36,018 nt of DNA from a virus (IMGVR_UViG_3300045988_025231), one strand, 5' to 3'; positions 1 to 36,018 are shown, counted from the stretch's first letter. The notes: a model not told the origin generated them from the letters alone. Translations and numbers: made by a program.

Positions 1-119
1 ATTTTTTTGGTTTTCTATAATTCCTTAAAAAATCTACATACGCTCTTTCCCTAGCCCTCTCGTAGATTGGGTGGTATAGTTCGGCAGTCTTCACTATAAA
101 ATCTTTTATCGGGTATTCA
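1..119. repeat. Exact terminal overlap, left copy (1-119 = 35900-36018). It marks a closed 35,899-bp genome.
   Basis: Read directly. The window opens ATTTTTTTGGTTTTCTATAATTCC..., and the same string restarts at 35900 and runs to the last base. The overlap lies inside one continuous minus-strand reading frame. Confidence 0.95.
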
Positions 120-298
120 AACTCTTCTCCGAAAAACTCTAATACTAGATGCCTTGCAAATACCTCCTTCACTGTGAGGCGCAATGGGGATGAAAACTTA
201 TTAAATGCTTCGATGGCTGACTTGCATCGTGCTATGCCCTCCGTTACAGCATCATAATAAAACTTTTCGAGCGCACATAGATTCACTTTTTTCTCCAT
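1..298 (-). CDS. N-terminal part of the first early gene (HTH DNA-binding protein). It continues at 35899 downwards through the circular junction. The full gene is 501 nt, 166 aa.
   Basis: ATG at 298-296. Hand translation gives MEKKVNLCALEKFYYDAVTEGIARCKSAIEAF...EYPIKDFIVKTAELYHP, which joins in frame to the 35697..35993 track ORF. The track ORF begins only at an internal GTG because the window ends there. Confidence 0.75.
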   Translation of the reverse strand, partial: MEKKVNLCALEKFYYDAVTEGIARCKSAIEAFNKFSSPLRLTVKEVFARHLVLEFFGEEFEYPIKDFIVKTAELYHPIYERARERAYVDFLRNYRKPKK

Positions 299-423
299 TG
301 CTTTCGGTTTTTAAAATTCAGCGAGCCCGTCTATCTCCGTAGTGGTCCTTTGTTCACCACAATTATTTCCTCAGCCAATCGTAGGTGACTGAACGTCTGA
401 TTATCGGTTTACGATTACGCTGA

Positions 424-454
424 CAAAGGTACGGCTTTTATTTTAATTTGCAAC
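424..454 (-). promoter_or_regulatory. Putative early-operon promoter (Bacteroidota type). -7 TACCTTTG at 431-424, -33-like GTTG at 454-451, 19-nt spacer.
   Basis: Minus strand reads GTTGCAAATTAAAATAAAAGCCGTACCTTTG, about 125 nt upstream of the ATG at 298. A CTAATAAACGTTAA box (494-479), shared with the three early cassettes, lies just upstream. Confidence 0.45.
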
Positions 455-505: not shown

Positions 506-886
506 ATCAAATCACTGTAACTCACTGATAATCAGATAATATGCGATGCCGTGCATTGATGTGCATAGATGAAAATTGGCATCTATTCCGTGTAACTTCC
601 TGCAGATCAGACCGATGCAGTGATGCATTGATAAAATCGGATTTTTCTATAATATACATAAATATGGTGTGTGCGATAATATATAATTACAATATACCTG
701 TTTTCATATATTTAATAATACCTCATTTTATCTATGCATCAATGCAAATATCTATAAATCAGTTAGTTATCCTGCACAGATACAAAAATATTCAACAATG
801 CCTATCAATGCAGCTTGCGCATCACAATGGTTTGTAGCAACTTACGTGCATACTCGAATCTACGGATATACTATATACCTTACAAA
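506..886. repeat. Non-coding element, copy A (diverged duplicate of 21443-21808). It carries GCATTGAT/ATCAATGC motif arrays around an AT-rich core.
   Basis: Conserved blocks shared with copy B: 506-529, 551-571, 705-781 (about 93% identical to 21628-21703), 804-845 and 860-886. GCATTGAT at 553 and 625; ATCAATGC at 738 and 804. Confidence 0.85.
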
Positions 887-1456
887 TCAGTCGAAATTGG
901 CTGAAAATGTCACGTGAAGCCTGTTTTTAGGGTTTCTGTTAGTTACGGTAGTCAGTATCTTAGGCTTGCCAATCCGGAAGAACAGGAACCGTTTCTGCTT
1001 GACATGGCTGATTACGGCTAGTGAGTCAACCGACGAATTGTTAATTTCTGTAGAATCCGGTGACACTTTCCCTTCTATTCTGTTCCACCCATCATAGTAT
1101 TCGAATCGGTAGATACCTGGAATTGTATCCCGGATAGTCTTGGTAACGGTGTGTATCTCTAGCTTGGTTTCTACGGTGTGTGCTGACTTGACATCCCGTA
1201 GCTTTATCTTTAGGTCCTTCACGGTTTCCTGCAAGTCGGAGTTGAATAGCTCCAGCTCCGATTTCTTCAAGGACAGCGAGCGTATCTGCTCAGCAAACTG
1301 TCCGTTTTCCGTCCTGTACCGCATAGCCTCAATGTTCAAGGCTTCAATGTTACTCTGTTTACGGTCCAATTCGACCTTCTGTCGCTCTACCTTATTAAAA
1401 AGGAAGCCCACTGCTATTACTAGCAGCAGGCATGCGATAATCAAGTACTTTCTCAT
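887..1456 (-). CDS. Membrane-anchored coiled-coil protein; putative spanin-like lysis accessory protein.
   Basis: The ATG at 1456 overlaps the amidase stop (ATGA). N-terminal TM helix YLIIACLLLVIAVGFLF, then a heptad-rich charged segment and a beta-rich C-terminus. It is the last gene of the lysis cassette. The longer track start (1519) lies inside the amidase gene. Confidence 0.45.
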   Translation of the reverse strand: MRKYLIIACLLLVIAVGFLFNKVERQKVELDRKQSNIEALNIEAMRYRTENGQFAEQIRSLSLKKSELELFNSDLQETVKDLKIKLRDVKSAHTVETKLEIHTVTKTIRDTIPGIYRFEYYDGWNRIEGKVSPDSTEINNSSVDSLAVISHVKQKRFLFFRIGKPKILTTVTNRNPKNRLHVTFSANFD

Positions 1457-1959
1457 GGTGTGATTATTACGTCCTTCTTTAGCAGCCCGTACTCGCTTCT
1501 CACATCGAAGCAGGGGCATGCCTTAATATACTCTGCTGGTTCTACTTCCCCATTTCCGTTCAAATCCGGAGATGTATCCCGATGTCCCAGCAATTCGACA
1601 ATCGGATATCGTGCGCAAATATCGTTGATAAGGTTTATCAAGGCTTCTTTCTGCTGCGGTGTGCGGGTATCCTTCGCTTTCCCGTTCTTGCCCAGCCCGC
1701 CTACGTAGCAGATACCGATTGAATGGTGGTTGTATGATTCTTTGGAGGATCCCTTAGTATTACAGTGAGCACCTACGGATGTTTCCTTTCTACCCGGTTC
1801 TACTGTTCCGTCCAAACGGATCACGTAATGATAACCGATTCCGTTGAATCCTCGCTGTTTGTGCATGGCGTCAATTTCCTTTGCGCCTATGTCTTGCCCT
1901 TCACGTGTAGCACTGCAATGGATAATAATTGCGTCTACCTTATTGGTGTTGTTTACCAT
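1453..1959 (-). CDS. N-acetylmuramoyl-L-alanine amidase (Amidase_2/PGRP, T7-lysozyme-like endolysin).
   Basis: Motifs IIIHCSAT, GYHYVI, GAHC, ICYVGG, LLGHRD and KACPCFD fit the Zn-binding His/His/Cys pattern of the family. I prefer the ATG at 1959 (MVNNTNK); the track start at 1986 is a GTG. Confidence 0.85.
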   Translation of the reverse strand: MVNNTNKVDAIIIHCSATREGQDIGAKEIDAMHKQRGFNGIGYHYVIRLDGTVEPGRKETSVGAHCNTKGSSKESYNHHSIGICYVGGLGKNGKAKDTRTPQQKEALINLINDICARYPIVELLGHRDTSPDLNGNGEVEPAEYIKACPCFDVRSEYGLLKKDVIITP

Positions 1960-10701: not shown

Positions 10702-12389
10702 TATTTCTGTCTCAATAGATTAATTTTAGTCAATTTTATCTTACATTCCTGCGTGGAAAGGTTGTAATCCGTGATCGACCGGATGTAAAAGAACGCATTC
10801 AACTGCTTGAACCACACCACACCGTTCTCCTTGTATTTGTTTTCGATGTAGTAGTAAGGTATCTTAGCCTTAATTGTCACGTCCAATGCGTCCGAAAACA
10901 GCCCGTAGTACTTCTGTAGCGACTGCGTGTAATTGATCGACTTGAAATATTCTACCCAAGTAGACCCGCTCCCCACCGCTCCTTTACGAATGGCGAATCT
11001 AGGATACGTACCGTCTTGAGGATATGGGACATTGGATTCCACGATGTCGCCCTTAGCCGTGAATGAAGCCTTGGAAACCTGCAGACTCTTGAAGTAGTCA
11101 CCGATCTTGAACACTGCGGTGTTCGGGAAGCCTTCGGAATCCTCGATCTTGTCGGTTGACAGGTAAAAGTCAGACCAATCCTGTCGGGAATCATTGAAGG
11201 TTATCGGACCATTCTGAGCCACGTTGCGCGCCTCGTCAGCAATCAGCTTATACACGTTTACATTGACGTTCGTGTTTCCGTTGACATCCTCAGTAAGTGT
11301 AAACTTCCACCCCCATTGGAATATCTTGCATATGTCGGTGAGAAACGTTATGGCATCCGATACTCCGCAGTTTCCAAACTCTTGTGTAAGTCCTGCGGTA
11401 TTCTGAAGCGATGTTATTTTTCCCGACAGGTTTACGGCTTCATCCGGTGACATAAAGGATGGCGGAAGCGCATTCAGCCTGTTGTAGTCATTGATATCCC
11501 TGCTGATGTAGAATCCGTAGAAGTTGCGGATCGGTATGTTCATGGTCGTGGAAATGTACTTGTAGCGGACCTGCGTGATGTCGTTCTGTTCACCGTCCTT
11601 TTGGAAGATTGCTACCGTCTGATTATTGTACACCGCTTTTAGAACCACATAGTTCGGCACCGTGCCTACTTTAGACATGTCCAGCGTAATGTAAGCGTTG
11701 TTGTCCATAGTGACCACAGCCACGGTTGATTCTGTCACGCCACCCGGTGCTGTCATGGCTGTCCGGGTATCGTACTCCTTGATGTCCAGGGCGTTGCCTC
11801 TGAAATATTTCGTGCCATCGTCCGTCTCGGATGCATACCGCCAAAACACGGTAACTGACTTGCCTACAAGCAGATCAGTGATGCCTATCTGACCCTTGTT
11901 CTCGATGATCAGACCCGGCACGTAACCTCCGTAGTCGATAGCGGGGAATGTCACGGGATTAACGGTTCGCAACGCTTGCTTGATCAGATCGCTAGCTCGG
12001 AAGAACCGAGTATTGTCCACGTTCGAGTCGATGAGCGTAGTCTCCACGACTTCCTTCGGCAACTGCGACATCTTGAGATCGGATTGCGACAGCGCAATGC
12101 TGTAACTCTCCTCATCGCAGGTCACCTTAGCCTTGAACCGCTTGTTGATCGCTATCCCACCTAGGTAGATCTTAGCCTCGTACTTCACATCACGCATCGC
12201 GTAACCAAAGTTTCGCATCTGATAGAAGATACCGTCGTTGACCTGGCTTCTCGGGGCTTTGATGTTGGCTGAGTAAGTACGGGTAGATTCCCCAAACGAG
12301 TAGGGAGATGACGCATTGATGGAGAGTTTGACCTCCGTCTTAGTCAAGCCATCCAGGAATGTGCCGTTTATCTGAATCTTTACGTCCAT
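10701..12389 (-). CDS. Tail/baseplate structural protein (562 aa), function unassigned.
   Basis: Large beta-rich ORF translationally coupled to the tape-measure-like gene. No catalytic motif recognised. Confidence 0.45.
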   Translation of the reverse strand: MDVKIQINGTFLDGLTKTEVKLSINASSPYSFGESTRTYSANIKAPRSQVNDGIFYQMRNFGYAMRDVKYEAKIYLGGIAINKRFKAKVTCDEESYSIALSQSDLKMSQLPKEVVETTLIDSNVDNTRFFRASDLIKQALRTVNPVTFPAIDYGGYVPGLIIENKGQIGITDLLVGKSVTVFWRYASETDDGTKYFRGNALDIKEYDTRTAMTAPGGVTESTVAVVTMDNNAYITLDMSKVGTVPNYVVLKAVYNNQTVAIFQKDGEQNDITQVRYKYISTTMNIPIRNFYGFYISRDINDYNRLNALPPSFMSPDEAVNLSGKITSLQNTAGLTQEFGNCGVSDAITFLTDICKIFQWGWKFTLTEDVNGNTNVNVNVYKLIADEARNVAQNGPITFNDSRQDWSDFYLSTDKIEDSEGFPNTAVFKIGDYFKSLQVSKASFTAKGDIVESNVPYPQDGTYPRFAIRKGAVGSGSTWVEYFKSINYTQSLQKYYGLFSDALDVTIKAKIPYYYIENKYKENGVVWFKQLNAFFYIRSITDYNLSTQECKIKLTKINLLRQK

Positions 12390-19521: not shown

Positions 19522-20686
19522 TTTTCCTTTGATTTTTAGCACCCGGACGGTACTTGGTTATAAGATAGTCGACTGCGTAGCGAAGTGCGTCCATGGCGTG
19601 GTTATTTGCGTCCTGCGGCTTCGTGGTGTCGTACATCCCTGTCATCCTGTCGAGAGTCCACGAGTACTGGTCGAATTCGTCCTGCACGTTCCGTGATCCT
19701 GCGACTACGTGCAACTTGAACTGCTTGACTTCGCTGATCCCCGCAACCACCGATCCTTTGCCCTTGATGCACGGGATGATCTTGCAGCCCAGCCGGGAAA
19801 TCTCGGTGATGCTCTTCTGCTCCGCGGAATCCGCGATGGTGTACGTCCTGTGGAATCCGAGATCATGGAGAACTTCCGAGATGTCCCAGTTGACCATGCC
19901 CGTCCGGTATTCGAGTTCTTGGATGTACAGATCGCTTCCCTTGAAGCCGACACGCACGATTGCCGTGGGGTCTCCGGTGAATCCGAAGTCAAGACCCAAG
20001 CACTGTCCCGTAACATCGGCAGGGAACTCGGGGACCACGTCATAATCCGGATACACGAGTCCTTCGACTCCTCCTGTTTCTCCGAGACCGAAGATACGCC
20101 ACCAGTTCTCGTCCTGCTTGTTTCGCTCGATCTCCTCGATCTGTTCGGGAGTCAAGTACGGATTGTCCTTGTAGGTACTCACGATCTCGACCATCCCCGG
20201 TCCCTTGAAGTAGTCGTGTGCCCAAAACTTCTTGACAGGATTGTAGTCGATGTAGAGCATTAGCCGGGTACGCACCGCCATCTGACGGAACACTTCAAAC
20301 GGGACACGTTGCGCCTCGTTTACGAACAGGATGTCACGGGCAGGACCGAAAATCTTAGACGAGTCCTCGCAGCCGAAGAATTCGATCTGTGACCCGTTCT
20401 CCAGTGAGTAGATGGAATCGGTCAGATTCATGCATTTGTCGTCCCACACGCCTTCGTCTTGCAACATTCGCTTGAAGTCACGGAACATGCCTCGCTTGAT
20501 GCCCGGCATCGTGTCCGTAACGCAGGAGATGAGGAGCGGTGTTTCTGATTCCCTAGCCATGATGTAGAGAAGCTGAAGCATCGACCACGTCTTGGATGAT
20601 CGTGTTCCGCCTCTGCTGGATACGCCCCGGACATCCGGATCGACCGTGGCTTCTAGGAGTTTGTCGAATACGTAGGTTGTCTTCAT
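19514..20686 (-). CDS. terL: Terminase large subunit (PBSX/Terminase_3-like).
   Basis: Walker A-like GGTRSSKTWS, Walker B ILFVNEAQ, and nuclease-domain motifs GLDFGFTGDPTA, ADSAEQKSI and NHAMDALRYA. ATGA overlap with terS. Confidence 0.85.
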   Translation of the reverse strand: MKTTYVFDKLLEATVDPDVRGVSSRGGTRSSKTWSMLQLLYIMARESETPLLISCVTDTMPGIKRGMFRDFKRMLQDEGVWDDKCMNLTDSIYSLENGSQIEFFGCEDSSKIFGPARDILFVNEAQRVPFEVFRQMAVRTRLMLYIDYNPVKKFWAHDYFKGPGMVEIVSTYKDNPYLTPEQIEEIERNKQDENWWRIFGLGETGGVEGLVYPDYDVVPEFPADVTGQCLGLDFGFTGDPTAIVRVGFKGSDLYIQELEYRTGMVNWDISEVLHDLGFHRTYTIADSAEQKSITEISRLGCKIIPCIKGKGSVVAGISEVKQFKLHVVAGSRNVQDEFDQYSWTLDRMTGMYDTTKPQDANNHAMDALRYAVDYLITKYRPGAKNQRKNG

Positions 20687-21294
20687 TCCTTCGGATCGTC
20701 TAGTTTATCGTCACCGTGTTTTTCTCGCTTCTTAGCGACTTTCGCAAGTGCTTGCATACGTTTCGCTGTATCATTGCTTAAAACTTCAACACGCAGCCCG
20801 CCAGTGATCTTCTCGTCGTTGCTGGTGACATCGCTCAATGCCTTAAGCCCGCGAAGCTTCGAAATGTAGTTAGGATCGTACAATCCGACCGATGCACCTT
20901 TGTCCATGTCATCTCTGATCCATTGACGGATCACCCGGATTTCCTCAAGGAACGCAAGGGATTCGTCATCTTGGTATTTCTCGTGCTGCTCCTTGTAAAC
21001 TCGCTCACGGGAATTCAGATAGTCACAGCTTGTACCGAGAAACTGGGTAAAGCCGAATTCCGTTACCAGCAGCTTCTTTCGTACAACATAACTCTGTCCA
21101 GCCATGACACCGCTCTTCACGTAATCGGTCGCTTCGATCGGATGGTTGCGACACCACATCACGTAGTTGTCGAAGACCTCCCGAAGTTGCCCCGGTTCCG
21201 TGAAGAGTGGTGTATGCCCGAACCGCTCCTTGTACAGGGTGTACAGTTCCTCCCCGTAAAAGGGATTATATAAATTCGCTTGGATACTATTCAT
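20683..21294 (-). CDS. terS: Terminase small subunit (putative).
   Basis: Directly upstream of terL and coupled to it. The N-terminal PLFTEPGQLREVFDNYVMWCRNHP segment is typical of small terminases. I prefer the ATG at 21294 because the track TTG start (21324) lies inside the predicted promoter -7 box. Confidence 0.55.
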   Translation of the reverse strand: MNSIQANLYNPFYGEELYTLYKERFGHTPLFTEPGQLREVFDNYVMWCRNHPIEATDYVKSGVMAGQSYVVRKKLLVTEFGFTQFLGTSCDYLNSRERVYKEQHEKYQDDESLAFLEEIRVIRQWIRDDMDKGASVGLYDPNYISKLRGLKALSDVTSNDEKITGGLRVEVLSNDTAKRMQALAKVAKKREKHGDDKLDDPKE

Positions 21295-21321: not shown

Positions 21322-21353
21322 CAAAGGTAAGCATTATCCCCAGCATCCCCAAA
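21322..21353 (-). promoter_or_regulatory. Late-operon promoter (Bacteroidota type). -33 TTTG (21353-21350), 20-nt spacer, -7 TACCTTTG (21329-21322).
   Basis: Minus strand reads TTTGGGGATGCTGGGGATAATGCTTACCTTTG, 27 nt upstream of the terS ATG. Confidence 0.55.
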
Positions 21354-21442: not shown

Positions 21443-21808
21443 TCCTGCATTGATAAACTGCATTGATGCATAGATCATCAATTCACTGTAACTTACTGAT
21501 CGTCAATAAGATGCATTGCTTGTGCATTGATTGCATAGATGTTTTCCTATATTTACCAACGAAATCTTTTGATTGTGTTAAATTGCATATACAATTATAT
21601 ACACTATTTAACAACATCAAAAGAATTCATATATTTAATAATACTCATTTTATCTATGCATCAATGCAAATATCTATAAATCAGTAGGTTATCCTGCATA
21701 GATGAGAAAAATATTATCAATGCACATCAATGCAGCTTGCGCATCACAATGATTTGTAGCAACTTACAAGAATACATAAAACTACGGATGTACTATATAC
21801 TTTACAAA
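21443..21808. repeat. Non-coding element, copy B (diverged duplicate of 506-886).
   Basis: GCATTGAT at 21447, 21460 and 21524 (plus GCATTGCT at 21513). ATCAATGC at 21660, 21716 and 21726. The 21628-21703 core is nearly identical to 705-781. Confidence 0.85.
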
Positions 21809-21924
21809 AACCCTGTTTTCGGGCTATTTTAATCTTATCTAAGCTTACTCTAAGCTTACGTTTAACATTCTACAACTTCTGTTAGGATTTCTTTTGTAAC
21901 AAATTTTCTTAATATTTTTAGTAC

Positions 21925-21978
21925 AAATTTATAAATTCGTGCAAATTGAGAAAATTTATAAATTCGTGCAAATTGAGA
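21925..21978. repeat. Perfect 27-bp tandem direct repeat x2 (AAATTTATAAATTCGTGCAAATTGAGA).
   Basis: Units at 21925-21951 and 21952-21978 are identical. A partial inverted copy follows at about 21985-22013. Confidence 0.9.
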
Positions 21979-22009
21979 GAACTTACGAAATTTGCATAAA
22001 TTCTCTCAA
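21973..22009 (-). terminator. Stem-loop (9-bp stem TTGAGAGAA/TTCTCTCAA, 19-nt loop) directly after the last early gene; candidate early-operon terminator or protein-binding site.
   Basis: Inverted repeat read directly, starting 10 nt downstream of the stop at 22019. There is no clean U-tract. Confidence 0.35.
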
Positions 22010-22018
22010 ATTTCTTTC

Positions 22019-22647: not shown

Positions 22648-23279
22648 CGCATTAACAAGGCTGTTGTTATTACACCTACCCCTACACCCAACAGGGCTAC
22701 TATGATCATTACTTTGACCAAGCCGTTGGAGAGTTTCCCGTATTCCTTGACTGAGTCCATACACTTCTTTTCGGAAGCATTGTACGCGCTCTTGTAGAAA
22801 TCTAAGTTCTCTCGGGCATTCCCTAGGGATTCTTTCATATATGTATTCTCGATGACTAGCTTTTTCACCCGTCCAGTCAGCTCCGTGTTATCTTTAGACA
22901 ACCGGATATACTTTTCCACCCGGTTGTTGTAGGCTTTCTCTGTGCTTACCAGATCCTCTTTCAGCCTCTTTATAAGATCCATCTTTTTCTTGAGGTCATC
23001 ACGGAGACCCTTAATCTGTTGATCCCGGTGTTTCTTGGCATGGCAGTCTCGACAGCCGTCTTCCGGCTTCCTTGATTCCGGCTTCCTTGATTCCGACTTC
23101 TTTTCAGGTTCATCGTCTTCGAAGACACCAATAGCTCTCTCCATGCAGTCCTTACAGACCCTTACTTCGTTCTCCTTGCCGTTGTTAAAGCACACAACGT
23201 GGGCTACGTTCTTCCGGCACACGTCACACAATAATATGGTCTTAAACGTGCTATCCGGTTTGTTTACTTGATATTCCAT
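22644..23279 (-). CDS. Zinc-ribbon / coiled-coil / C-terminal TM (tail-anchored) protein, 211 aa.
   Basis: CDVC...CKDC N-terminal Cys pairs, tandem SRKPE SRKPE, a long heptad-rich middle, and the terminal hydrophobic helix VMIIVALLGVGVGVITTALL. Confidence 0.6.
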   Translation of the reverse strand: MEYQVNKPDSTFKTILLCDVCRKNVAHVVCFNNGKENEVRVCKDCMERAIGVFEDDEPEKKSESRKPESRKPEDGCRDCHAKKHRDQQIKGLRDDLKKKMDLIKRLKEDLVSTEKAYNNRVEKYIRLSKDNTELTGRVKKLVIENTYMKESLGNARENLDFYKSAYNASEKKCMDSVKEYGKLSNGLVKVMIIVALLGVGVGVITTALLMR

Positions 23280-23686
23280 GACTTTTTCTTTCTTTTGATT
23301 GGTTTTACTTTAGATAATATCTCGGCAGCCAGCAACCGGGCTTCAAGCGGTGACAGGATGATCTTCTGCATTGTCACGCCATTCTCCATACGGGCGATCA
23401 CGTAATCTCCGGTGTTTCCCTTTTCCATGAGTTTCACACCGAAACGGTCTCTCTTGTTGATCGCCTCGCGCATCCTGCGCTGCGCCTCTTCCATACGTTC
23501 GAACTGCTGCATCTTATACTGACGATTGCCGTATCCCCGCTCTTCCTCAAGACCGCTGATGTAGGCATCATCAAGTTCTGCCAGCCTGGCGTTATACTCA
23601 GCCTCGGTCATCCAGCCTTTAGCTCTGTGGTGCTCTAGAGTAGCTCTAGCAGCACTGTATTCTGTGTCAGAAATAATTACAGCCAT
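23264..23686 (-). CDS. Hypothetical soluble protein (140 aa).
   Basis: ATG at 23686 (MAVIISDTEY); the track start at 23701 is a TTG. Helical and charged; no motif. Confidence 0.5.
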   Translation of the reverse strand: MAVIISDTEYSAARATLEHHRAKGWMTEAEYNARLAELDDAYISGLEEERGYGNRQYKMQQFERMEEAQRRMREAINKRDRFGVKLMEKGNTGDYVIARMENGVTMQKIILSPLEARLLAAEILSKVKPIKRKKKSWNIK

Positions 23687-27777: not shown

Positions 27778-27975
27778 TTACAAATTGTTTACGAGCAGTC
27801 TGTATGCGGTTTCCTTAGCTGCCAGATGTTTCTCTTTGTTTTCTTCATCATCGCACCAATCCCATATCTCGGAGTCATTACAAGGCACCGATGTGCCTAT
27901 ACCCTTTAATATATACAGCCCGTAGCCTATTTTCTCGATGGTTATTGTTTCATTGTTGATCTCAAATGTTTTCAT
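27778..27975 (-). CDS. Hypothetical early protein (65 aa).
   Basis: ATG-initiated ORF. No motif. Confidence 0.45.
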   Translation of the reverse strand: MKTFEINNETITIEKIGYGLYILKGIGTSVPCNDSEIWDWCDDEENKEKHLAAKETAYRLLVNNL

Positions 27976-27991
27976 AATTTTATTATTTTAT

Positions 27992-28009
27992 GGGGTGGTC
28001 TCCCACCCC
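27992..28009 (-). terminator. GC-rich stem-loop (GGGGTGG / CCACCCC, 4-nt loop) between two small early genes; possible attenuator or RNA-processing signal.
   Basis: Perfect 7-bp inverted repeat in an otherwise AT-rich 49-bp gap. No U-tract on the minus strand. Confidence 0.35.
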
Positions 28010-28024
28010 GGTTAATTATTAGTG

Positions 28025-28225
28025 TTATAGTATCACTTCTACTCCGATAATGTATCCTTCGTAGAATAGCTTGTTTAATCGGGGGTCTATCGTAGCGTAA
28101 ACCTTGTTTACTAATTCAGAGAAACAGGGGAATTCATCTTCCGGGAATTCTACCCCTATCTTAACGCTTTTTGTTTTGTTTGATTCGGTGATTTTAAACT
28201 TAACCTTTAATGTAATTGTCTTCAT
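28025..28225 (-). CDS. Hypothetical early protein (66 aa), first gene behind promoter cassette 2.
   Basis: ATG-initiated ORF. No motif. Confidence 0.45.
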   Translation of the reverse strand: MKTITLKVKFKITESNKTKSVKIGVEFPEDEFPCFSELVNKVYATIDPRLNKLFYEGYIIGVEVIL

Positions 28226-28239
28226 AATCTTTATATTTT

Positions 28240-28332
28240 TAATTGTTACTACTTGTTTAACTTTGATGACGCGAATATACGGCAGTCTTCTGAATTTGCC
28301 AAATTTTGAACAAATTTTTAACGTTTGTTAGT
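28240..28332 (-). promoter_or_regulatory. Early promoter cassette 2. Palindrome at 28293-28305, -33 TTTG at 28303-28300, -7 TATATTCG at 28279-28272 (one mismatch), conserved leader.
   Basis: Minus strand reads CTAACAAACGTTAAAAATTTGTTCAAAATTTGGCAAATTCAGAAGACTGCCGTATATTCGCGTCATCAAAGTTAAACAAGTAGTAACAATTAA. Confidence 0.55.
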
Positions 28333-28362
28333 GGCCAGAAGCCCGTATTAACATCCATTAAT

Positions 28363-28386
28363 AAAAAACCTCCCGTATCGGGCTTC
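28363..28386 (-). terminator. Weak terminator-like signal. Short hairpin CCCG-ATA-CGGG followed by AGG and T6 on the minus strand.
   Basis: Minus strand reads GAAGCCCGATACGGGAGGTTTTTTATT, about 145 nt downstream of the primase stop and just upstream of cassette 2. The stem is only 4 bp. Confidence 0.3.
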
Positions 28387-28530
28387 ACAGCAGGATACAG
28401 GAGGAAAAATATAAATATGTATGACAAACATAAAGAAGTGAAATGTTGACTGCTCTCAGCCTAAAATCTTCTTATCAGTAGTACAAGATACAAATTATAA
28501 CCCTTAAATTCAGTGATGCAAAGATATGTA

Positions 28531-30897
28531 TTAATCTTCGATATCCGAAATAATACGGGTGTAAATTGACTGTCTACCGTAAATATTAACATTTTGCTGT
28601 CCGTTACGGACAAAGCCCAGCCTCTTGAGCGACCCTGCAATCTCCCTAGCCTTAGCTACCGTAAAATCCTTCCGAGGCATCCCAAGACCATCGCACCATA
28701 TCTCGAAGGTGCAGAAATGCTTCCTAGTCTCTGTCCCCTCTTCGAATACGCCTATTCCGTCAACAAAATCCCTCCGGTCAGCGCATACCCAGTTATCCCA
28801 ATCCTTCGGGAATTTCATGTTGACAAACTTCTCGATCAAGCCGTGCATCGAAGATACTTCCGTGTACTCCTCACGAATACCGTTAGCTATGCTTTCGGCT
28901 ACCTTAGATAGTATTAGACTCTCACCAGCATCGTATAGCTCCTTAGCCTCTGCCCATAGCTGGTCGATGGTGTCCTCAAAGGATTTCTCGAACAGGTAGT
29001 GGCTGTTGGCATTCCATTTCACAGCGATCGGAAAGAAACGTCTGTTCCCTGTTTGGTCCTTGAGAAATTCGTCCTCGTTGGTTGACCCGAAGAATACACA
29101 TTGGCGTTTATGTGTCTTGATGCGCTTGGCATAGGCAGCACGATATGTGTCCTCGCGCTTGGACAGGAAGTTCTTCATCACTTCGATGTCTGACTTCTTG
29201 ACGGCTGACAACTCGGCTAGCTCCACCAGCCAAGCATTCTGAATTGACTCGTAAGCCTTCGTGCCTTCCATTGAGGTCATGGAGTCGTTGAACCAACCCT
29301 TCGACAGTCGCTGGACCAGTGTCGACTTACCCGCACCTTGATGGGATACCATGATCAGGGCTGTGTCGAACTTGGTCCCCGGTTCGTAGATGCGGGCAAC
29401 CGCAGCTACCAGCATCTTGCGGAACGCCTCTCTTGTGTAGATCGAATCCTCAGCACCCATGTAGGTTTGAAGGAACATGTCGATACGTGGCTTTCCGTCC
29501 CATACGAGAGAGTCAAGGTATGTCTTGATAGGATGGAAGCCGTTCTTGTTGGCTACGTATTCGATGGCATCGCACATCTTTCCAGTGGAGTAAATACCGT
29601 GGGCTGTCTCAATCCGGTTTCGGATGATTGACTCTGCGGTGTCATCGAAGATGTCCCCCTTGTCCTTGCTGCTGTCGAAAAACGGCTTTCGGGTATACAC
29701 TATGACTCCTCGGAATTGGTCATAGGCGAGCAAGTTGTTGAGCAGAGGATCAGTGCGGAAAGCGTTGACGAAGTTGCGGATGGTCACCTCCTTGCGTCCC
29801 TTGCTGTCAAGATCCCAATCCAGCACTTCTTCTACCTCTTCTACTGATTCATCGGACACTTCATCAAAGTCATCCAAGCAATCATTGGCAGCTACTAGCT
29901 CACGGAGGCATAACTCATCCTCCTGTACCAGTTTAGCCATCGCATGCTCGCTCTCTTCCTTTCCGAGATGCCCGAACAGATGAATGCGCACAAGGTCATA
30001 GGCATTGTATACATGACCGTCCCCGATTGGGTCAGTGGAATGGTGGGAGTACGCGAACTTGTCATCATACACGATCATTCCGGCTGCAGACGACCCACCT
30101 TTATATGTGTAGCGGTCATAGTCGCAATTCTCGTAAACGTCAGACAAGTATTTTTCGATAGCTTCCTGTACGGTGTACACCCGGCAGAACGCACCGATCA
30201 TTCCCGGCTTGCTGGTCGGTTCCCCAGCCTCTGAGACAGTGCTGCGGATCGTGCGCTCCTCGTTATCAGTAAACGCCCATAGACGGACGTCTTTCCACGC
30301 ATCCTCACCTCCGTACATGTCGAGCAACTCGTCTATATTCAACGCCTCGCCATCCTGTCTCTCAAAGTAGAATTCTTGATCTTTGGATACTGATCCCCAA
30401 TACATCAGACGTTCCGCTTGAAAGGTTGTCGGGTCGAACAGTTCGATGCCCATGATCTCCGCTACCTTTCGGCTGGCTGCTTCGTACTCTTCCCGGTTGT
30501 CGATCTCACGGTCCATCGGGATGATAAGACGGTATCTGCGCTTACCGGGGCGGTCTGATCTTGTGCCATATATGACAGCAGCGCATGCGAAGTTCATGGT
30601 GAAATCGAAGAAAAAATCGTCTTCTCCGTAGTCAACGTCTAATGTGATAAGTGATCTGCCTGTTACTGAATTTTTGGTACGTCTTCCGCCAGCTAGAGTT
30701 CCGCCTACGAATCCTCCGACATCCTTGCGGATCGCTTTCTCTGACTTCGCCAGCCTGTCAAACTCCTTCATAGTCTCGCTTCCGACCATCTTGGGCTTCG
30801 ATAGCTCTTCAACTAGGGCTTCCCAAGTATAAGTCTTTCTCTTCCAATTGGTGCTTTTGGAAGAACCTGCAACTGATATAAGATATTTTTCCAACAT
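28531..30897 (-). CDS. Primase/helicase-type replication protein (AEP-like primase N-terminal region plus VirE-family P-loop domain).
   Basis: Walker A SHQGAGKST. The VirE-type block WLVELAELSAVKKSDIEVMKNFLSKREDTYRAAYAKRIKTHKRQCVFFGSTNE...GNRRFFPI. The N-terminal region has an LDVDYG acidic motif. Confidence 0.8.
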   Translation of the reverse strand: MLEKYLISVAGSSKSTNWKRKTYTWEALVEELSKPKMVGSETMKEFDRLAKSEKAIRKDVGGFVGGTLAGGRRTKNSVTGRSLITLDVDYGEDDFFFDFTMNFACAAVIYGTRSDRPGKRRYRLIIPMDREIDNREEYEAASRKVAEIMGIELFDPTTFQAERLMYWGSVSKDQEFYFERQDGEALNIDELLDMYGGEDAWKDVRLWAFTDNEERTIRSTVSEAGEPTSKPGMIGAFCRVYTVQEAIEKYLSDVYENCDYDRYTYKGGSSAAGMIVYDDKFAYSHHSTDPIGDGHVYNAYDLVRIHLFGHLGKEESEHAMAKLVQEDELCLRELVAANDCLDDFDEVSDESVEEVEEVLDWDLDSKGRKEVTIRNFVNAFRTDPLLNNLLAYDQFRGVIVYTRKPFFDSSKDKGDIFDDTAESIIRNRIETAHGIYSTGKMCDAIEYVANKNGFHPIKTYLDSLVWDGKPRIDMFLQTYMGAEDSIYTREAFRKMLVAAVARIYEPGTKFDTALIMVSHQGAGKSTLVQRLSKGWFNDSMTSMEGTKAYESIQNAWLVELAELSAVKKSDIEVMKNFLSKREDTYRAAYAKRIKTHKRQCVFFGSTNEDEFLKDQTGNRRFFPIAVKWNANSHYLFEKSFEDTIDQLWAEAKELYDAGESLILSKVAESIANGIREEYTEVSSMHGLIEKFVNMKFPKDWDNWVCADRRDFVDGIGVFEEGTETRKHFCTFEIWCDGLGMPRKDFTVAKAREIAGSLKRLGFVRNGQQNVNIYGRQSIYTRIISDIED

Positions 30898-30903
30898 ATA
30901 TAA

Positions 30904-32943
30904 TTAACCCTTTTTGTAAAAGTAACTGTTAAAGCCTTCTGCTCTTAGGGGAATGTCGAACGGCTTTGCCCAATCGGGTAAAATAGCCATAGCGATGCAA
31001 ATGTCATCTAGCGTTATGTCGGTATCCTCAACGCATTCGGTTATCAGTTCGTCATGGATATGCCCGACAATTTTAACGGTCTCATCAATATTCAAAACAT
31101 TTCGCATCGCACTGGCTAACAAATCGCGGGATACTGCTTGCACTAGGTTTTCAGTTAGTTTACCTCCGTAGGTATCTAGTTCCACCCATTTTCCGGACGT
31201 TTGATCAAGCCCCATGTAATGTATCGATTCGATCTCCCTGCTGTCACCGTTATCATAACGGATCGTTTTCTTCTTGATCGAAGCATACGGGTAGTGCAGG
31301 GAGCGTCCAGAAGGCAAGCGCAATGCGAGCGTCCTGTACTGTGGTATCCAATAGAAATGGCAGATAATTTTACCATCAATATTGACGGGTACATCCCGCT
31401 TCGCCAAGATAGCTCTTTTAGCCGAATCCTCTAAGATGCGCCACAAAGATACAATTTTCGGTGATGCGTCACGCCATTTAAGGATGATGTTTTTAATATT
31501 TTCTTCCGGGATCGCTCCGTCACGGTCCATAGTCTTGATTGCTCCGACCCATCCGCCATATCCTAGAGCTAGCTCTGTTACCTTTCCCTGCTGGCGATAA
31601 GGGGTCCCTTTTCCGCATTCCGATTCCTTCATATTGAAGGTACGTGCGGCAGATGTTACGTAGATGTCACCACCTCTTCGGAATGTTTCGATTCTCCATG
31701 TTTCGTTCGCCAGTACTGCGATCACACGGGCTTCGATGGCAGAGAAGTCAGCTACCCGGAAGACGTGGTTATCACGGGCAATGAATGCTGTACGGATCAG
31801 TTGTGACAGGATGGACGGGATATTATCGTAGAACAGCATCAATTCGTCTAGGTCCATAATTTTCACGTCCTCACGAACTCTCTCAAGTTCCTCTAGGTGG
31901 TTCTGCGGAAGGTTCTGCTGCTGAACGATTCGTCCAGCCCATCTGCCTGTCCGGTTAGCTCCGTAGAAGCGGTACAAGCCCTTAGCTGATCCGTCTTTGC
32001 ACAGGCAGTTCAGCATGGCAGCGTACTTTGCGATAGATGTCTTGTAGGCGATTTTGCGGGCTGTCAGAACACGAGTCACATCCTTGTCGTTGCATTCCTC
32101 CATGATCTGATTGATGTTGTTTTTGTTGATCGTTTCGTATAACTTCCCGCTACGCTCTTCAATGAAGGCGCTGATCTGCTTGCTTGACTTAAGAGACGTG
32201 ATACCATACTTAGCCTTGACCTTCTCGTTCAGCCTCTTCAAGTATTCCGTGTAGATGGCATCAGCATTCCGGGCTAGTTGGACATCCACCCGTGTCCCAC
32301 GATCATTGATGTCTTGGTCTATCCCGTACAGTTCGATTTCCGATTCCGGCATTTCGATGTGCGCCAGCTTGCGGTCGATCTCACGTTCAGACAATACGTC
32401 ATATCTGAGGTATGTCTTAAATTCTTCCCATTTCTGCGGATATTGTTCCGGATATATGCGTGATCCGTCCTTCTGCGGACACGAGAATAACTTGATCAAT
32501 GCGCTACCCGTGTCTAGCTTTCCGTCTACTAGCTGCATGGCTGCTGATACCTTTCCTAGTGCTTCGGGGAATCCGCAGTATAGGGCTTTTGTGGCGGAGC
32601 AGCGAAACTTGGTAGCGGGGATATCAAATTTGTAGGCACGAAGACACAACCGTTCGAAGGTGGCGTTGTGCGCATGGATCAGAACGTCCGGCTGCTGGAT
32701 CAAGGTAAAGAACGGTAGCGGGTCCTCAAACCTAGCCAAGTCTATTATCTTTGGTTCCTCATCCTCTATGGCATAGCCAATCAACAGGATTTCGAAATCG
32801 GGATGCTCCGTGTACCTGTACATCCCGGCTGTCTTGATCGGTTCGGGAGAGTAGGTTTCGAAGTCTATGTAAACATTTCTCATATGTTGTCCTTTCTTTT
32901 TAAAAAGATAGCGGATGTCTTCTACCCCATCCGCTATCCACAT
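30904..32943 (-). CDS. Family A DNA polymerase with a 3'-5' exonuclease domain.
   Basis: Exo I YIDFETYS, Exo II HNATFERL, motif A ADFSAIEARV, motif B RQQGKVTELALGYGG, motif C GHIHDELI. I chose the ATG at 32943 (the track TTG is at 32952); an alternative ATG is at 32883. Confidence 0.9.
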   Translation of the reverse strand: MWIADGVEDIRYLFKKKGQHMRNVYIDFETYSPEPIKTAGMYRYTEHPDFEILLIGYAIEDEEPKIIDLARFEDPLPFFTLIQQPDVLIHAHNATFERLCLRAYKFDIPATKFRCSATKALYCGFPEALGKVSAAMQLVDGKLDTGSALIKLFSCPQKDGSRIYPEQYPQKWEEFKTYLRYDVLSEREIDRKLAHIEMPESEIELYGIDQDINDRGTRVDVQLARNADAIYTEYLKRLNEKVKAKYGITSLKSSKQISAFIEERSGKLYETINKNNINQIMEECNDKDVTRVLTARKIAYKTSIAKYAAMLNCLCKDGSAKGLYRFYGANRTGRWAGRIVQQQNLPQNHLEELERVREDVKIMDLDELMLFYDNIPSILSQLIRTAFIARDNHVFRVADFSAIEARVIAVLANETWRIETFRRGGDIYVTSAARTFNMKESECGKGTPYRQQGKVTELALGYGGWVGAIKTMDRDGAIPEENIKNIILKWRDASPKIVSLWRILEDSAKRAILAKRDVPVNIDGKIICHFYWIPQYRTLALRLPSGRSLHYPYASIKKKTIRYDNGDSREIESIHYMGLDQTSGKWVELDTYGGKLTENLVQAVSRDLLASAMRNVLNIDETVKIVGHIHDELITECVEDTDITLDDICIAMAILPDWAKPFDIPLRAEGFNSYFYKKG

Positions 32944-33030
32944 TTGCACCAACTTACTTAGTTAAATAATAAAATTTAGTTAATAATAAATGAATAAAAA
33001 TTTAAGTTATAAATTAAAAGTTTCTTTGTT

Positions 33031-33624
33031 TTAGTACGGAAGGTCTTCACCCGTAGGATCATCGAAGATCGGATCATTGTCCGTATCATCGTCTTCTTCA
33101 TCGAAGTCGTTGATAACCGATCCTCCGCCTCCGAAGGCTTCATCGTCTTTCACCTTCTGAACTCCGTTCAAGCCGAATGTGATCCCCTTGTTTGCAATCT
33201 GATCGAATGAGTAGGCATCTATCGAAGCAACTCCCCAGCATCCGGAGTAGAAATCTTCTTTCTGTGTGATCGGTTGTTTGTGCCTGTCGATGATAACCGG
33301 ACGACCTTGAGATTCATTGCGGGAAGCACGAATGTAGTACATTCCTTCGAATCCATCGTATTCAATATTGTCGTCACCGTCTTTGATAGGATTCCATTTT
33401 GACGGGTCACCGGGCAACTTGCCATTGCATTTCGGATGTTCCGCAAGGTATTCCTTCTGCAACTCCTTGATAGCTGCTGCAACCTTCTTGATATTCTCCT
33501 TGTCAGTCTTCGGGATTAAAATGGTCACTTCGTACTTTGATTTGCCTTGGTTGAAACGGTCTTCCGCTTCGAATACTCTCACGAATGAGAATCTTACATT
33601 TTTTAGGATTAATTTCTTTCCCAT
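33031..33624 (-). CDS. Phage single-stranded-DNA-binding protein (DUF2815 type).
   Basis: N-terminus LILKNVRFSFVRVFEAE...KYEVTILIPK and an acidic C-terminal tip DDDTDNDPIFDDPTGEDLPY. Conserved position between the DUF2800 nuclease and the polymerase. Confidence 0.7.
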   Translation of the reverse strand: MGKKLILKNVRFSFVRVFEAEDRFNQGKSKYEVTILIPKTDKENIKKVAAAIKELQKEYLAEHPKCNGKLPGDPSKWNPIKDGDDNIEYDGFEGMYYIRASRNESQGRPVIIDRHKQPITQKEDFYSGCWGVASIDAYSFDQIANKGITFGLNGVQKVKDDEAFGGGGSVINDFDEEDDDTDNDPIFDDPTGEDLPY

Positions 33625-35696: not shown

Positions 35697-36018
35697 TTAC
35701 TGTTTTTTAAATGTTAAATATTTTTCTGTAATTTCCGCTTTGCTGAGTCTCAACGCACCGTTCCTGTTACGGTAGTGATTGAGATAGCCTTGTTTTACTC
35801 TGTAGCGTACCGCATTCTCGGTAAGGTCCAAAATACGAGCAGCTTCGCTGATCGTGATCAATTCTAACTTCTTTTCTTGATTCTCCATAAACTCAATTAA
35901 TTTTTTTGGTTTTCTATAATTCCTTAAAAAATCTACATACGCTCTTTCCCTAGCCCTCTCGTAGATTGGGTGGTATAGTTCGGCAGTCTTCACTATAAAA
36001 TCTTTTATCGGGTATTCA
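35697..36018 (-). CDS. C-terminal part of the first early gene: HTH DNA-binding domain (excisionase/MerR-like HTH_17 pattern). It is truncated by the window end and continues at 1..298.
   Basis: ELITISEAARILDLTENAVRYRVKQGYLNHYRNRNGALRLSKAEI fits the lt..EaA..Lgvs..tv...v..G.l...k.g....i pattern. The frame is continuous through the terminal overlap. Confidence 0.7.
   Translation of the reverse strand, partial: EYPIKDFIVKTAELYHPIYERARERAYVDFLRNYRKPKKLIEFMENQEKKLELITISEAARILDLTENAVRYRVKQGYLNHYRNRNGALRLSKAEITEKYLTFKKQ
35900..36018. repeat. Exact terminal overlap, right copy.
   Basis: Identical to 1-119 base for base. Confidence 0.95.

Follow-up and report, generated by a model that had tools for sequence, protein, structure and literature searches.

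Genome organization and location of the two elements

The DNA analyzed here, referred to as the window, is a stretch of 36,018 bp (IMGVR_UViG_3300045988_025231) whose first 119 bases are the same as its last 119 (1-119 and 35900-36018). As both ends are identical it is a closed circular contig of approximately 35,899 bp, and its sequence indicates that it is the complete circular genome, of about 35.9 kb, of a gut siphovirus of Bacteroides. The Bacteroides phages BT2 and BF1-2 share about 86% identity with it, with more distant kin among the 'cluster alpha' siphoviruses of B. thetaiotaomicron (ARB25/SJC/HNL/BT-P). ARB25-like siphoviruses are the chief cultured model of phage-Bacteroides interplay in the human gut; the genes of their genomes are nearly all 'hypothetical' and, to our knowledge, no origin has been described for these phages.

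The minus strand of the phage holds every gene. Reading with transcription, element B is followed by the small terminase gene terS, terL, the structural and lysis genes, and element A, after which come a gene for a protein with an N-domain and a helix-turn-helix (HTH), a gene for a 259-aa protein, a DUF2800 nuclease, an Enc34-type SSB, PolA and a primase-helicase. Beyond the primase-helicase there is a short AT-rich gap, in which a terminator-like hairpin-plus-T-run and promoter-like boxes can be read by eye, followed by small genes and an SNF2 helicase before element B is reached again. The replication genes identified are thus PolA, the Enc34-type SSB, the DUF2800 nuclease, the SNF2 helicase and the primase-helicase, which is of the VapE type. 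Element A is located between the last gene of the lysis module (887-1519, minus strand) and the HTH gene heading the replication module, and element B between the last gene of the module of small genes and SNF2 helicase and terS, the latter being identified by PHROG 606 (terminase small subunit, 4e-11) and by the annotation of BT2. On the 35.9-kb circle the two elements are about 14.6 and 20.6 kb apart. Their parts, and the genes and promoter-like sites associated with them, are listed in Table 1.

A search of the whole window against Rfam at gathering thresholds matched zero RNA families. GC and AT skew gave no origin signal either way, the cumulative skew being monotonic over the whole genome because all genes lie on one strand.

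Table 1. Coordinates of elements A and B, their parts and the associated genes and promoter-like sites in the window
Feature	Position	Strand	Remarks
5′ part of the 166-aa N-domain/HTH_17 gene	1-298	-	ATG at 298-296; crosses the circular junction, stop at 35697
Promoter-like GTTG-N19-TACCTTTG before the HTH gene	424-454	-	~95 bp beyond the nearest iteron
Element A, second array copy	552-886		6 exact and 2 one-mismatch sites
AT-rich core of A	633-729		GC 0.20; third least stable 100-bp window, z=3.9
terS, small terminase gene (203 aa)	20683-21294	-	ATG at 21294; directly downstream of element B
Presumed Bacteroides-type consensus promoter TTTG-N20-TACCTTTG before terS	21322-21353	-	~90 bp beyond the nearest iteron
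Element B (two repeat arms, AT-rich core and shared flank)	21446-21808		10 exact and 2 one-mismatch sites
B arm nearest terS	21446-21540	+	Exact sites 21446, 21459, 21467, 21523, 21532
AT-rich core of B, presumed DNA unwinding element	21541-21651		GC 0.20; second least stable 100-bp window, z=4.0
B arm far from terS	21652-21734	-	Sites 21652, 21660, 21716, 21726 (minus); reversed site 21695 (plus)
B flank common to A	21735-21808	-	Hairpin TTGTA-GCAACT-TACAA at 21754-21769, read from the sequence
Primase-helicase 'PriRep' (788 aa), proposed iteron reader	28531-30897	-	N-terminal primase, VapE-like ATPase, C-terminal winged helix
3′ part of the N-domain/HTH_17 gene	35697-36018	-	Last 119 bases of the window repeat the first 119

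Repeat unit and distribution of its sites

The initial annotation had described facing arrays of an octamer, GCATTGAT, in both elements. Every one of the octamer coordinates given there is correct, and GCATTGAT is present in 13 copies on both strands against 1.57 +/- 1.22 in shuffled sequence, with none of 100 shuffles reaching 13. The clustering is real and highly non-random; however, the unit that is repeated is not the octamer but the 9-mer TGCATWGAT, which occurs in 16 exact copies genome-wide against 0.88 expected. All 16 lie inside the two elements, six in A and 10 in B, and none outside. The octamer had been thought absent from coding sequence, which is true of the 9-mer but not of the 8-mer, copies of which are found at 12313, 22299 and 32495. 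An apparent variant of the octamer, GCATAGAT, proved to represent the same site, the degenerate base being A. The 9-mer is likewise exclusive to the two elements in BT2 (14 copies) and BF1-2 (15 copies).

The exact sites of A are at 552, 562 and 624 on the plus strand and at 730, 738 and 804 on the minus strand, those of B being given in Table 1. Two one-mismatch sites can be added to each element, namely 616 and 773 (both plus) in A and 21512 (plus) and 21477 (minus) in B. The flip of orientation across the AT-rich core, as first described, is strong, 15 of the 16 exact sites being aimed at the core, but it is imperfect. The exception is 21695, and its one-mismatch counterpart in A, 773, is reversed too; this reversed site is conserved and lies in the arm far from the downstream gene. 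Within the arms the spacing of sites varies (8, 9, 10 and 13 bp).

Structure of elements A and B

Elements A and B are paralogous along their whole length, with 82% identity over 332 aligned bases. The corresponding pairs are 80% identical in BT2 and 67% identical in ARB25. The AT-rich cores reported earlier were borne out, the stretches 21587-21686 and 631-730 (GC 0.20) ranking second and third in duplex instability among all 100-bp windows of the genome (z about 4). In B the core includes an imperfect palindrome with 34-nt arms centered at 21594/21595. The least stable 100-bp stretch of the genome is 32934-33033 (GC 0.18), in the short gap between PolA and SSB; it is without a TGCATWGAT site and has a promoter-like box further downstream, before the next gene (33680 to 33673).

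The 17-mer ATCTATGCATCAATGCA at 21652-21668 recurs, perfectly inverted, at 21459-21475, with 176 nt between the arms.

Outside the arm far from terS is the flank 21735-21808, on the minus strand of which a putative promoter-like TTTG-N20-TAGTTTTA (21808 to 21777), aimed into the arrays, can be read from the sequence. This flank is kept in 10 of 10 aligned B copies. Among A copies it is shared only by the window type (the window and the IMG/VR relative L015) and is absent from A of the BT2 type. The first ~80 bp of the A block (813-886) are B-like in the window and L015 when set against 21735-21808, and BT2, BF1-2 and other members of the clade have unrelated sequence there (compared with L003 3300-3378). 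This suggests a recent gene conversion from B to A in the lineage of the window.

The intergenic region upstream of B (21806-22018) has no counterpart in element A. A perfect 27-bp tandem repeat, AAATTTATAAATTCGTGCAAATTGAGA, occupies 21925-21951 and 21952-21978 and is accompanied by part of a third copy and by several inverted repeats. An 11-bp tandem repeat is found at 21838-21859, the minus strand carries a promoter-like TAAATTTG (21931 to 21924), and from 21825 to 21805 there is a weak hairpin with a T-run. The region could harbor a short transcript or a second protein-binding site.

Two ORFs which cover the arrays, 541-837 and 21463-21687 (both plus), were rejected as spurious, as they lie on the non-coding strand and are subject to 1-nt indels among close relatives. 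In BT2, a 79-aa 'hypothetical protein' (BT2_gp25, L003 23826-24065) is annotated over the terS promoter region and the terS-proximal arm, and the annotated terS of BF1-2 (L004 25472-26335) has a 5′ extension over the same stretch. Both are probably over-annotations.

It is worth mentioning that six IMG/VR contigs, mostly of ~21 kb (L027, L030, L033, L035, L038, and L046), end inside element B, 340-600 bp upstream of terS. The ~180-bp near-identical stretch of A and B is the likely cause of assemblies breaking into such ~21-kb contigs. In the partial genome of BT566P1 (L009), dense 12-15-nt repeats unrelated to the iterons, such as TGAAGGAACAACTG in seven copies, surround a run of N (23075-23510).

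Promoter-like sites and the HTH gene

Downstream of each element a promoter-like site was found with our own pattern, TTTG-N19-21-TAnnTTTG, the one before terS being what we take to be a Bacteroides-type promoter from the consensus. The sites before terS and before the HTH gene are both conserved in relatives. A sigma-70 promoter and terminator scan gave nothing above shuffle expectation, the promoter type being the wrong one for Bacteroides.

The first gene after element A encodes the N-domain/HTH_17 protein, whose HTH_17 match of 25.9 bits is below the Pfam cut-off of 27. It is the counterpart of ARB25_22 and ARB25_23 joined, these being separate adjacent ORFs (102 aa and 62 aa) in the ARB25 clade; the two clades are separated by a fusion or fission of this gene (window 1-298 and 35697-35899; L005 21097-21592). 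Conservation in the protein, which is 49% identical overall, is highest in the HTH helix, TENAVRY..QGYL. Three homologs were found, and the predicted model is poor (pLDDT 59).

A leader of ~125 nt (299-423, minus strand, especially 342-360) separates the HTH start codon from the promoter-like site; it is near-invariant in the window clade and contains a hairpin, GTGGT-N9-ACCAC. The ARB25 equivalent has a different one, GGGGAA...TTCCCC (L005, about 20980-21096). From its sequence, the leader may be a conserved RNA structure.

Conservation of the layout and the switch of motif

The positions of A and B are also taken up by large intergenic gaps in ARB25, HNL05, BT681P2, BT528P1, BT566P1, and a number of IMG/VR contigs. 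The gaps of the ARB25 clade have the same layout, with an upstream arm aimed downstream, an AT-rich core of ~100-130 bp and a downstream arm aimed upstream. The repeat in this clade is GGATAGAT(AG), and in a third subclade it is a mixture of GGATAGG and GGATAGAT. The motif thus changes between phage clades, and does so in concert at both loci. The TGCATWGAT class comprises three isolates and eight IMG/VR loci, and the octamer core was located ahead of the HTH gene in 13 loci and ahead of terS in 20. The positions of sites relative to the downstream gene are roughly kept between clades (-512/-446/-333 vs. -518/-445/-326), and among close relatives in the window clade the fifth base is swapped between T and A at fixed site positions; sites turn over and the arrays persist.

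The replacement of every site of both elements points to one sequence-specific protein that co-evolves with the motif. Phages of the TGCATWGAT class and of the GGATAGAT class have both been isolated on B. thetaiotaomicron, and since both motif classes occur on the same host species the binder is more likely to be encoded by the phage than by the host. It is probably, then, a phage protein. The motifs of both other classes have GGATAG in common, so that the core which is contacted may be shorter than 9 bp. A scan of 185,579 prokaryotic genomes with TGCATWGATGCATWGAT found no host-genome site or satellite; its matches were scattered over unrelated taxa, nearly all single and, by our own estimate, roughly at the level of chance. 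A host factor acting at the DnaA-like box TTATCCTGCA was also considered and rejected, as the box matches the consensus poorly and the motif differs between phages of the same host species.

The motif class, the HTH helix, the N-domain and the C-terminal domain of the helicase all fall into the same three clades (terS being compared with the window protein only). Covariation cannot single out the helicase, as every protein differs across these three clades.

The primase-helicase as candidate initiator

The primase-helicase was identified by the Pfam VapE-like_dom (3.3e-76) and by PHROG primase/helicase families, and its residues 380-701 match SaPI1 Rep1 (PDB 7pds_A) with an E-value of 1.6e-71. 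An AlphaFold (AF2) model of its last 408 residues has a pLDDT of 90.6 and ends in a winged helix made up of a strand, two helices and a beta-hairpin wing. Foldseek superposes this model on 7PDS with a TM score of 0.83-0.84 over about 425 columns (E-value 2.5e-36), and the superposition covers essentially the entire Rep, C-terminal domain included. Judging from the model, the phage protein is a close structural homolog of the SaPI Rep initiator. The final C-terminal alignment block (34 columns) is the part that is most divergent between clades, with 35% identity vs. 67% overall. That the C-terminus of the helicase diverges along with the motif, whereas the HTH helix is conserved, is suggestive of the helicase as the binder.

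Measured along the transcribed direction, element A begins ~7.5 kb before the start codon of the helicase gene and element B ~6.7 kb beyond its stop; directly after the gene (27975-28530) no array was found.

Facing arrays of their own motif around an AT-rich core of ~100 bp are also present in phages whose primase-helicases are only 35-41% identical to that of the window. In L069 an array of GTTGCCA starts ~15 bp short of the stop codon of the helicase gene (9940) and continues downstream, and SaPI origins are likewise found just after rep. L066 and L067 have an array of (G)TAAACAA(T) at the head of the replication module, like element A, and L066 has a further array of this motif 12.3 kb downstream, like element B. 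This second array (L066 12656-12790), just before the contig end, has GTAAACAAT in three tandem copies plus opposed ones, the primase-helicase of this phage being 40% identical. A layout with two arrays may thus predate the ARB25-like group. In L083 there is an array beside the 3′ end of the helicase gene, but it is in GC-rich sequence and the case is suggestive. No homolog of the N-domain/HTH protein was detected in these distant array-bearing phages, and arrays that occur where this protein does not lean toward the helicase as the binder.

Possible function of the elements

Two readings had been offered for the arrays at the outset, an iteron origin or a multi-operator regulatory region, and the evidence favors the former. 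We consider that A and B are, with somewhat better than even probability, two copies of an iteron-type origin served by the phage primase-helicase, the SaPI Rep homolog. For this functional claim the evidence is homology and architecture only, and it is from these that we infer binding of the helicase at the sites and the start of replication at the elements. The C-terminal winged helices of the primase-helicase would recognize the TGCATWGAT iterons in the two core-facing arms, one hexamer per arm would assemble and the ~100-bp core would melt. The helicases would then load themselves, the N-terminal primase domain would prime and the family-A polymerase of the phage would extend. Both copies may be active origins, or there may be one origin and one auxiliary site or fork barrier, for which SPP1 oriL/oriR would be the precedent; stalled forks could be processed by the phage nuclease and SSB.

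Several features count against an origin. Neither element adjoins the helicase gene, the unit, at 9 bp, is longer than the 5-6 bp of SaPIs, there is no skew signal, and both elements lie at operon boundaries, ~90-120 bp upstream of strong promoter-like sites. This placement, together with the HTH gene right after A, suits a regulator equally well. The arrays would on that account be operators or enhancers for a phage regulator, most obviously the N-domain/HTH_17 protein, which, once bound and possibly looping A to B or wrapping the core, would control the replication and the packaging/structural operons and could also stop read-through from the upstream operon. The genome is transcribed from one strand with both elements at its operon boundaries, each element has a strong Bacteroides-type promoter match downstream, an HTH is encoded by the gene that directly follows A (in L067 the gene next to the array, on its downstream side, is also HTH-like by eye, and is unrelated to the HTH protein of the window), and the occurrence of sites at two distant control regions recalls lambda OL/OR. 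However, the site nearest to the -33 box is ~92 bp (window) or ~118 bp (ARB25) upstream of it, so that there is no overlap and no fixed distance, and the HTH helix is nearly unchanged between clades which differ in DNA motif. Moreover, the N-domain/HTH protein is missing from the distant phages with facing arrays, the array of L069 follows the helicase gene within the replication module, and a long AT-rich core between opposed arrays would be unnecessary for an operator. An operator role is accordingly considered rather unlikely, though it is the main rival to an origin.

A decidedly speculative elaboration of the origin, which we regard as unlikely, is that A and B are not redundant. One of them, probably A, would fire, and B, upstream of terS, would be a helicase-bound fork barrier or pairing partner which switches replication from circle-to-circle to concatemer synthesis and so couples it to headful packaging. 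Such a scheme would be the Rep-type counterpart of the SPP1 oriR proposal, with the two-array layout conserved across a wide group of gut phages sharing the primase-helicase module.

It is common for a small terminase to bind repeats close to its own gene, and with element B immediately upstream of terS the arrays could be pac sites bound by the small terminase. Headful packaging would be in keeping with this and is thought likely for related phages, in which no fixed ends were found (bioRxiv 10.1101/2020.03.04.977157). However, there is an equally good copy, A, 14.6 kb/20.6 kb away before the replication genes, where a single terS-adjacent region would be expected, the arrays of relatives adjoin the primase-helicase or head the replication module, and an AT-rich core melted between opposed arrays has no known role in pac; such a function appears very improbable. 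We give still less weight to the possibility that the elements are neutral spacer which was duplicated or gene-converted, possibly a hotspot for module exchange, with the repeats as a by-product. The paralogy of A and B (67-82% identity) and the apparent conversion to B type of the first ~80 bp of A in the window lineage would be compatible with it, but from clade to clade the sites keep their number, orientation and position although the motif has been exchanged at each of them in both elements, and for this drift or duplication alone is insufficient. Least probable of all is an inverton, in which a recombinase would flip the 176-bp AT-rich, promoter-bearing segment between the perfect 17-nt inverted repeats: Bacteroides is rich in invertible promoters, but the core has one orientation in 19 of 19 aligned A and B copies from phages and metagenomes, each element has 8-12 sites and not one pair of repeats, no recombinase is annotated in BT2 or BF1-2, the closest complete relatives, and the architecture persists with other motifs in distant phages.

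The cluster-alpha genome paper (bioRxiv 10.1101/2020.03.04.977157) is silent on intergenic regions and promoters, its uses of 'repeat' and 'origin' being unrelated to A or B, and a full-text literature search for a Bacteroides phage replication origin with iterons returned nothing. An origin with a named candidate initiator provides a directly testable model of replication and a start for phagemid or shuttle replicons in Bacteroides. The motifs TGCATWGAT, GGATAGAT and GGATAGG with their winged-helix variants also form a natural specificity series for the study of initiator-iteron co-evolution.

Comparison with known replication systems

The Rep proteins of Staphylococcus aureus pathogenicity islands (SaPIs) are self-loading helicases as well as initiators, and their C-terminal winged helix recognizes iterons of five or six nucleotides (Qiao et al., 2022; PMC9371898). 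In the SaPI origin, 6-12 iterons lie just downstream of rep around an AT-rich center, two or more of them on either side in opposed orientation; Rep binds and melts the DNA independently of ATP, and each side is probably loaded with one hexamer (PMC9371898). Like these, the phage has a homologous initiator by sequence and fold, C-terminal winged helix included, with primase and helicase in one chain as in SaPI5 PriRep5. Its iterons are within the range in number (six exact and two one-mismatch in A, 10 and two in B), they lie on both sides of an AT-rich center, and at least two on each side are opposed (three plus vs. three minus in A; five plus vs. four minus in B, plus one reversed). In contrast, the phage iterons are 9 bp and not 5-6 bp, there are two dispersed copies instead of one, neither of them next to the helicase gene, and the elements are carried by a lytic siphovirus of Bacteroides, not by a Gram-positive satellite. 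On balance, A and B fit four of the five sequence-level features of a SaPI origin, and the differences in position and copy number are in our assessment more important than that in iteron length.

The Bacillus phage SPP1 has two origins alike in organization, each with repeats and an AT-rich unwinding element, which are ~13 kb apart on its circular map and bound by one initiator. Replication starts at oriL, and the initiator on oriR has been proposed to stall the fork, leading to concatemer synthesis (PMC6316719; PMC3485210). The phage of the window is likewise a siphovirus, presumably with headful packaging, with its genes on one strand and two similar copies of a putative origin. However, SPP1 relies on gp38, a helicase loader and a DnaB-type helicase where the candidate here is a VapE/Rep-type primase-helicase, and its repeats are direct whereas those of the phage arrays are opposed.

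Two further systems are similar by description. The alpha protein of satellite P4 is a single primase-helicase with a C-terminal winged-helix origin-binding domain, and P4 has octamer iterons at two cis sites, ori and crr, several kb apart; unlike A and B, however, crr is an enhancer-like repeat and not a full copy of the origin. Lambda OL/OR, as with A and B, have the same short binding sites clustered at two distant control regions, but the lambda operators overlap their promoters and have no AT-rich core between opposed arrays, the sites here being ~90-120 bp upstream of the promoter-like boxes. Taken together, A and B most likely belong to a kind of system that is already known, unusual in where the copies lie and in how many there are, and do not constitute a new kind.
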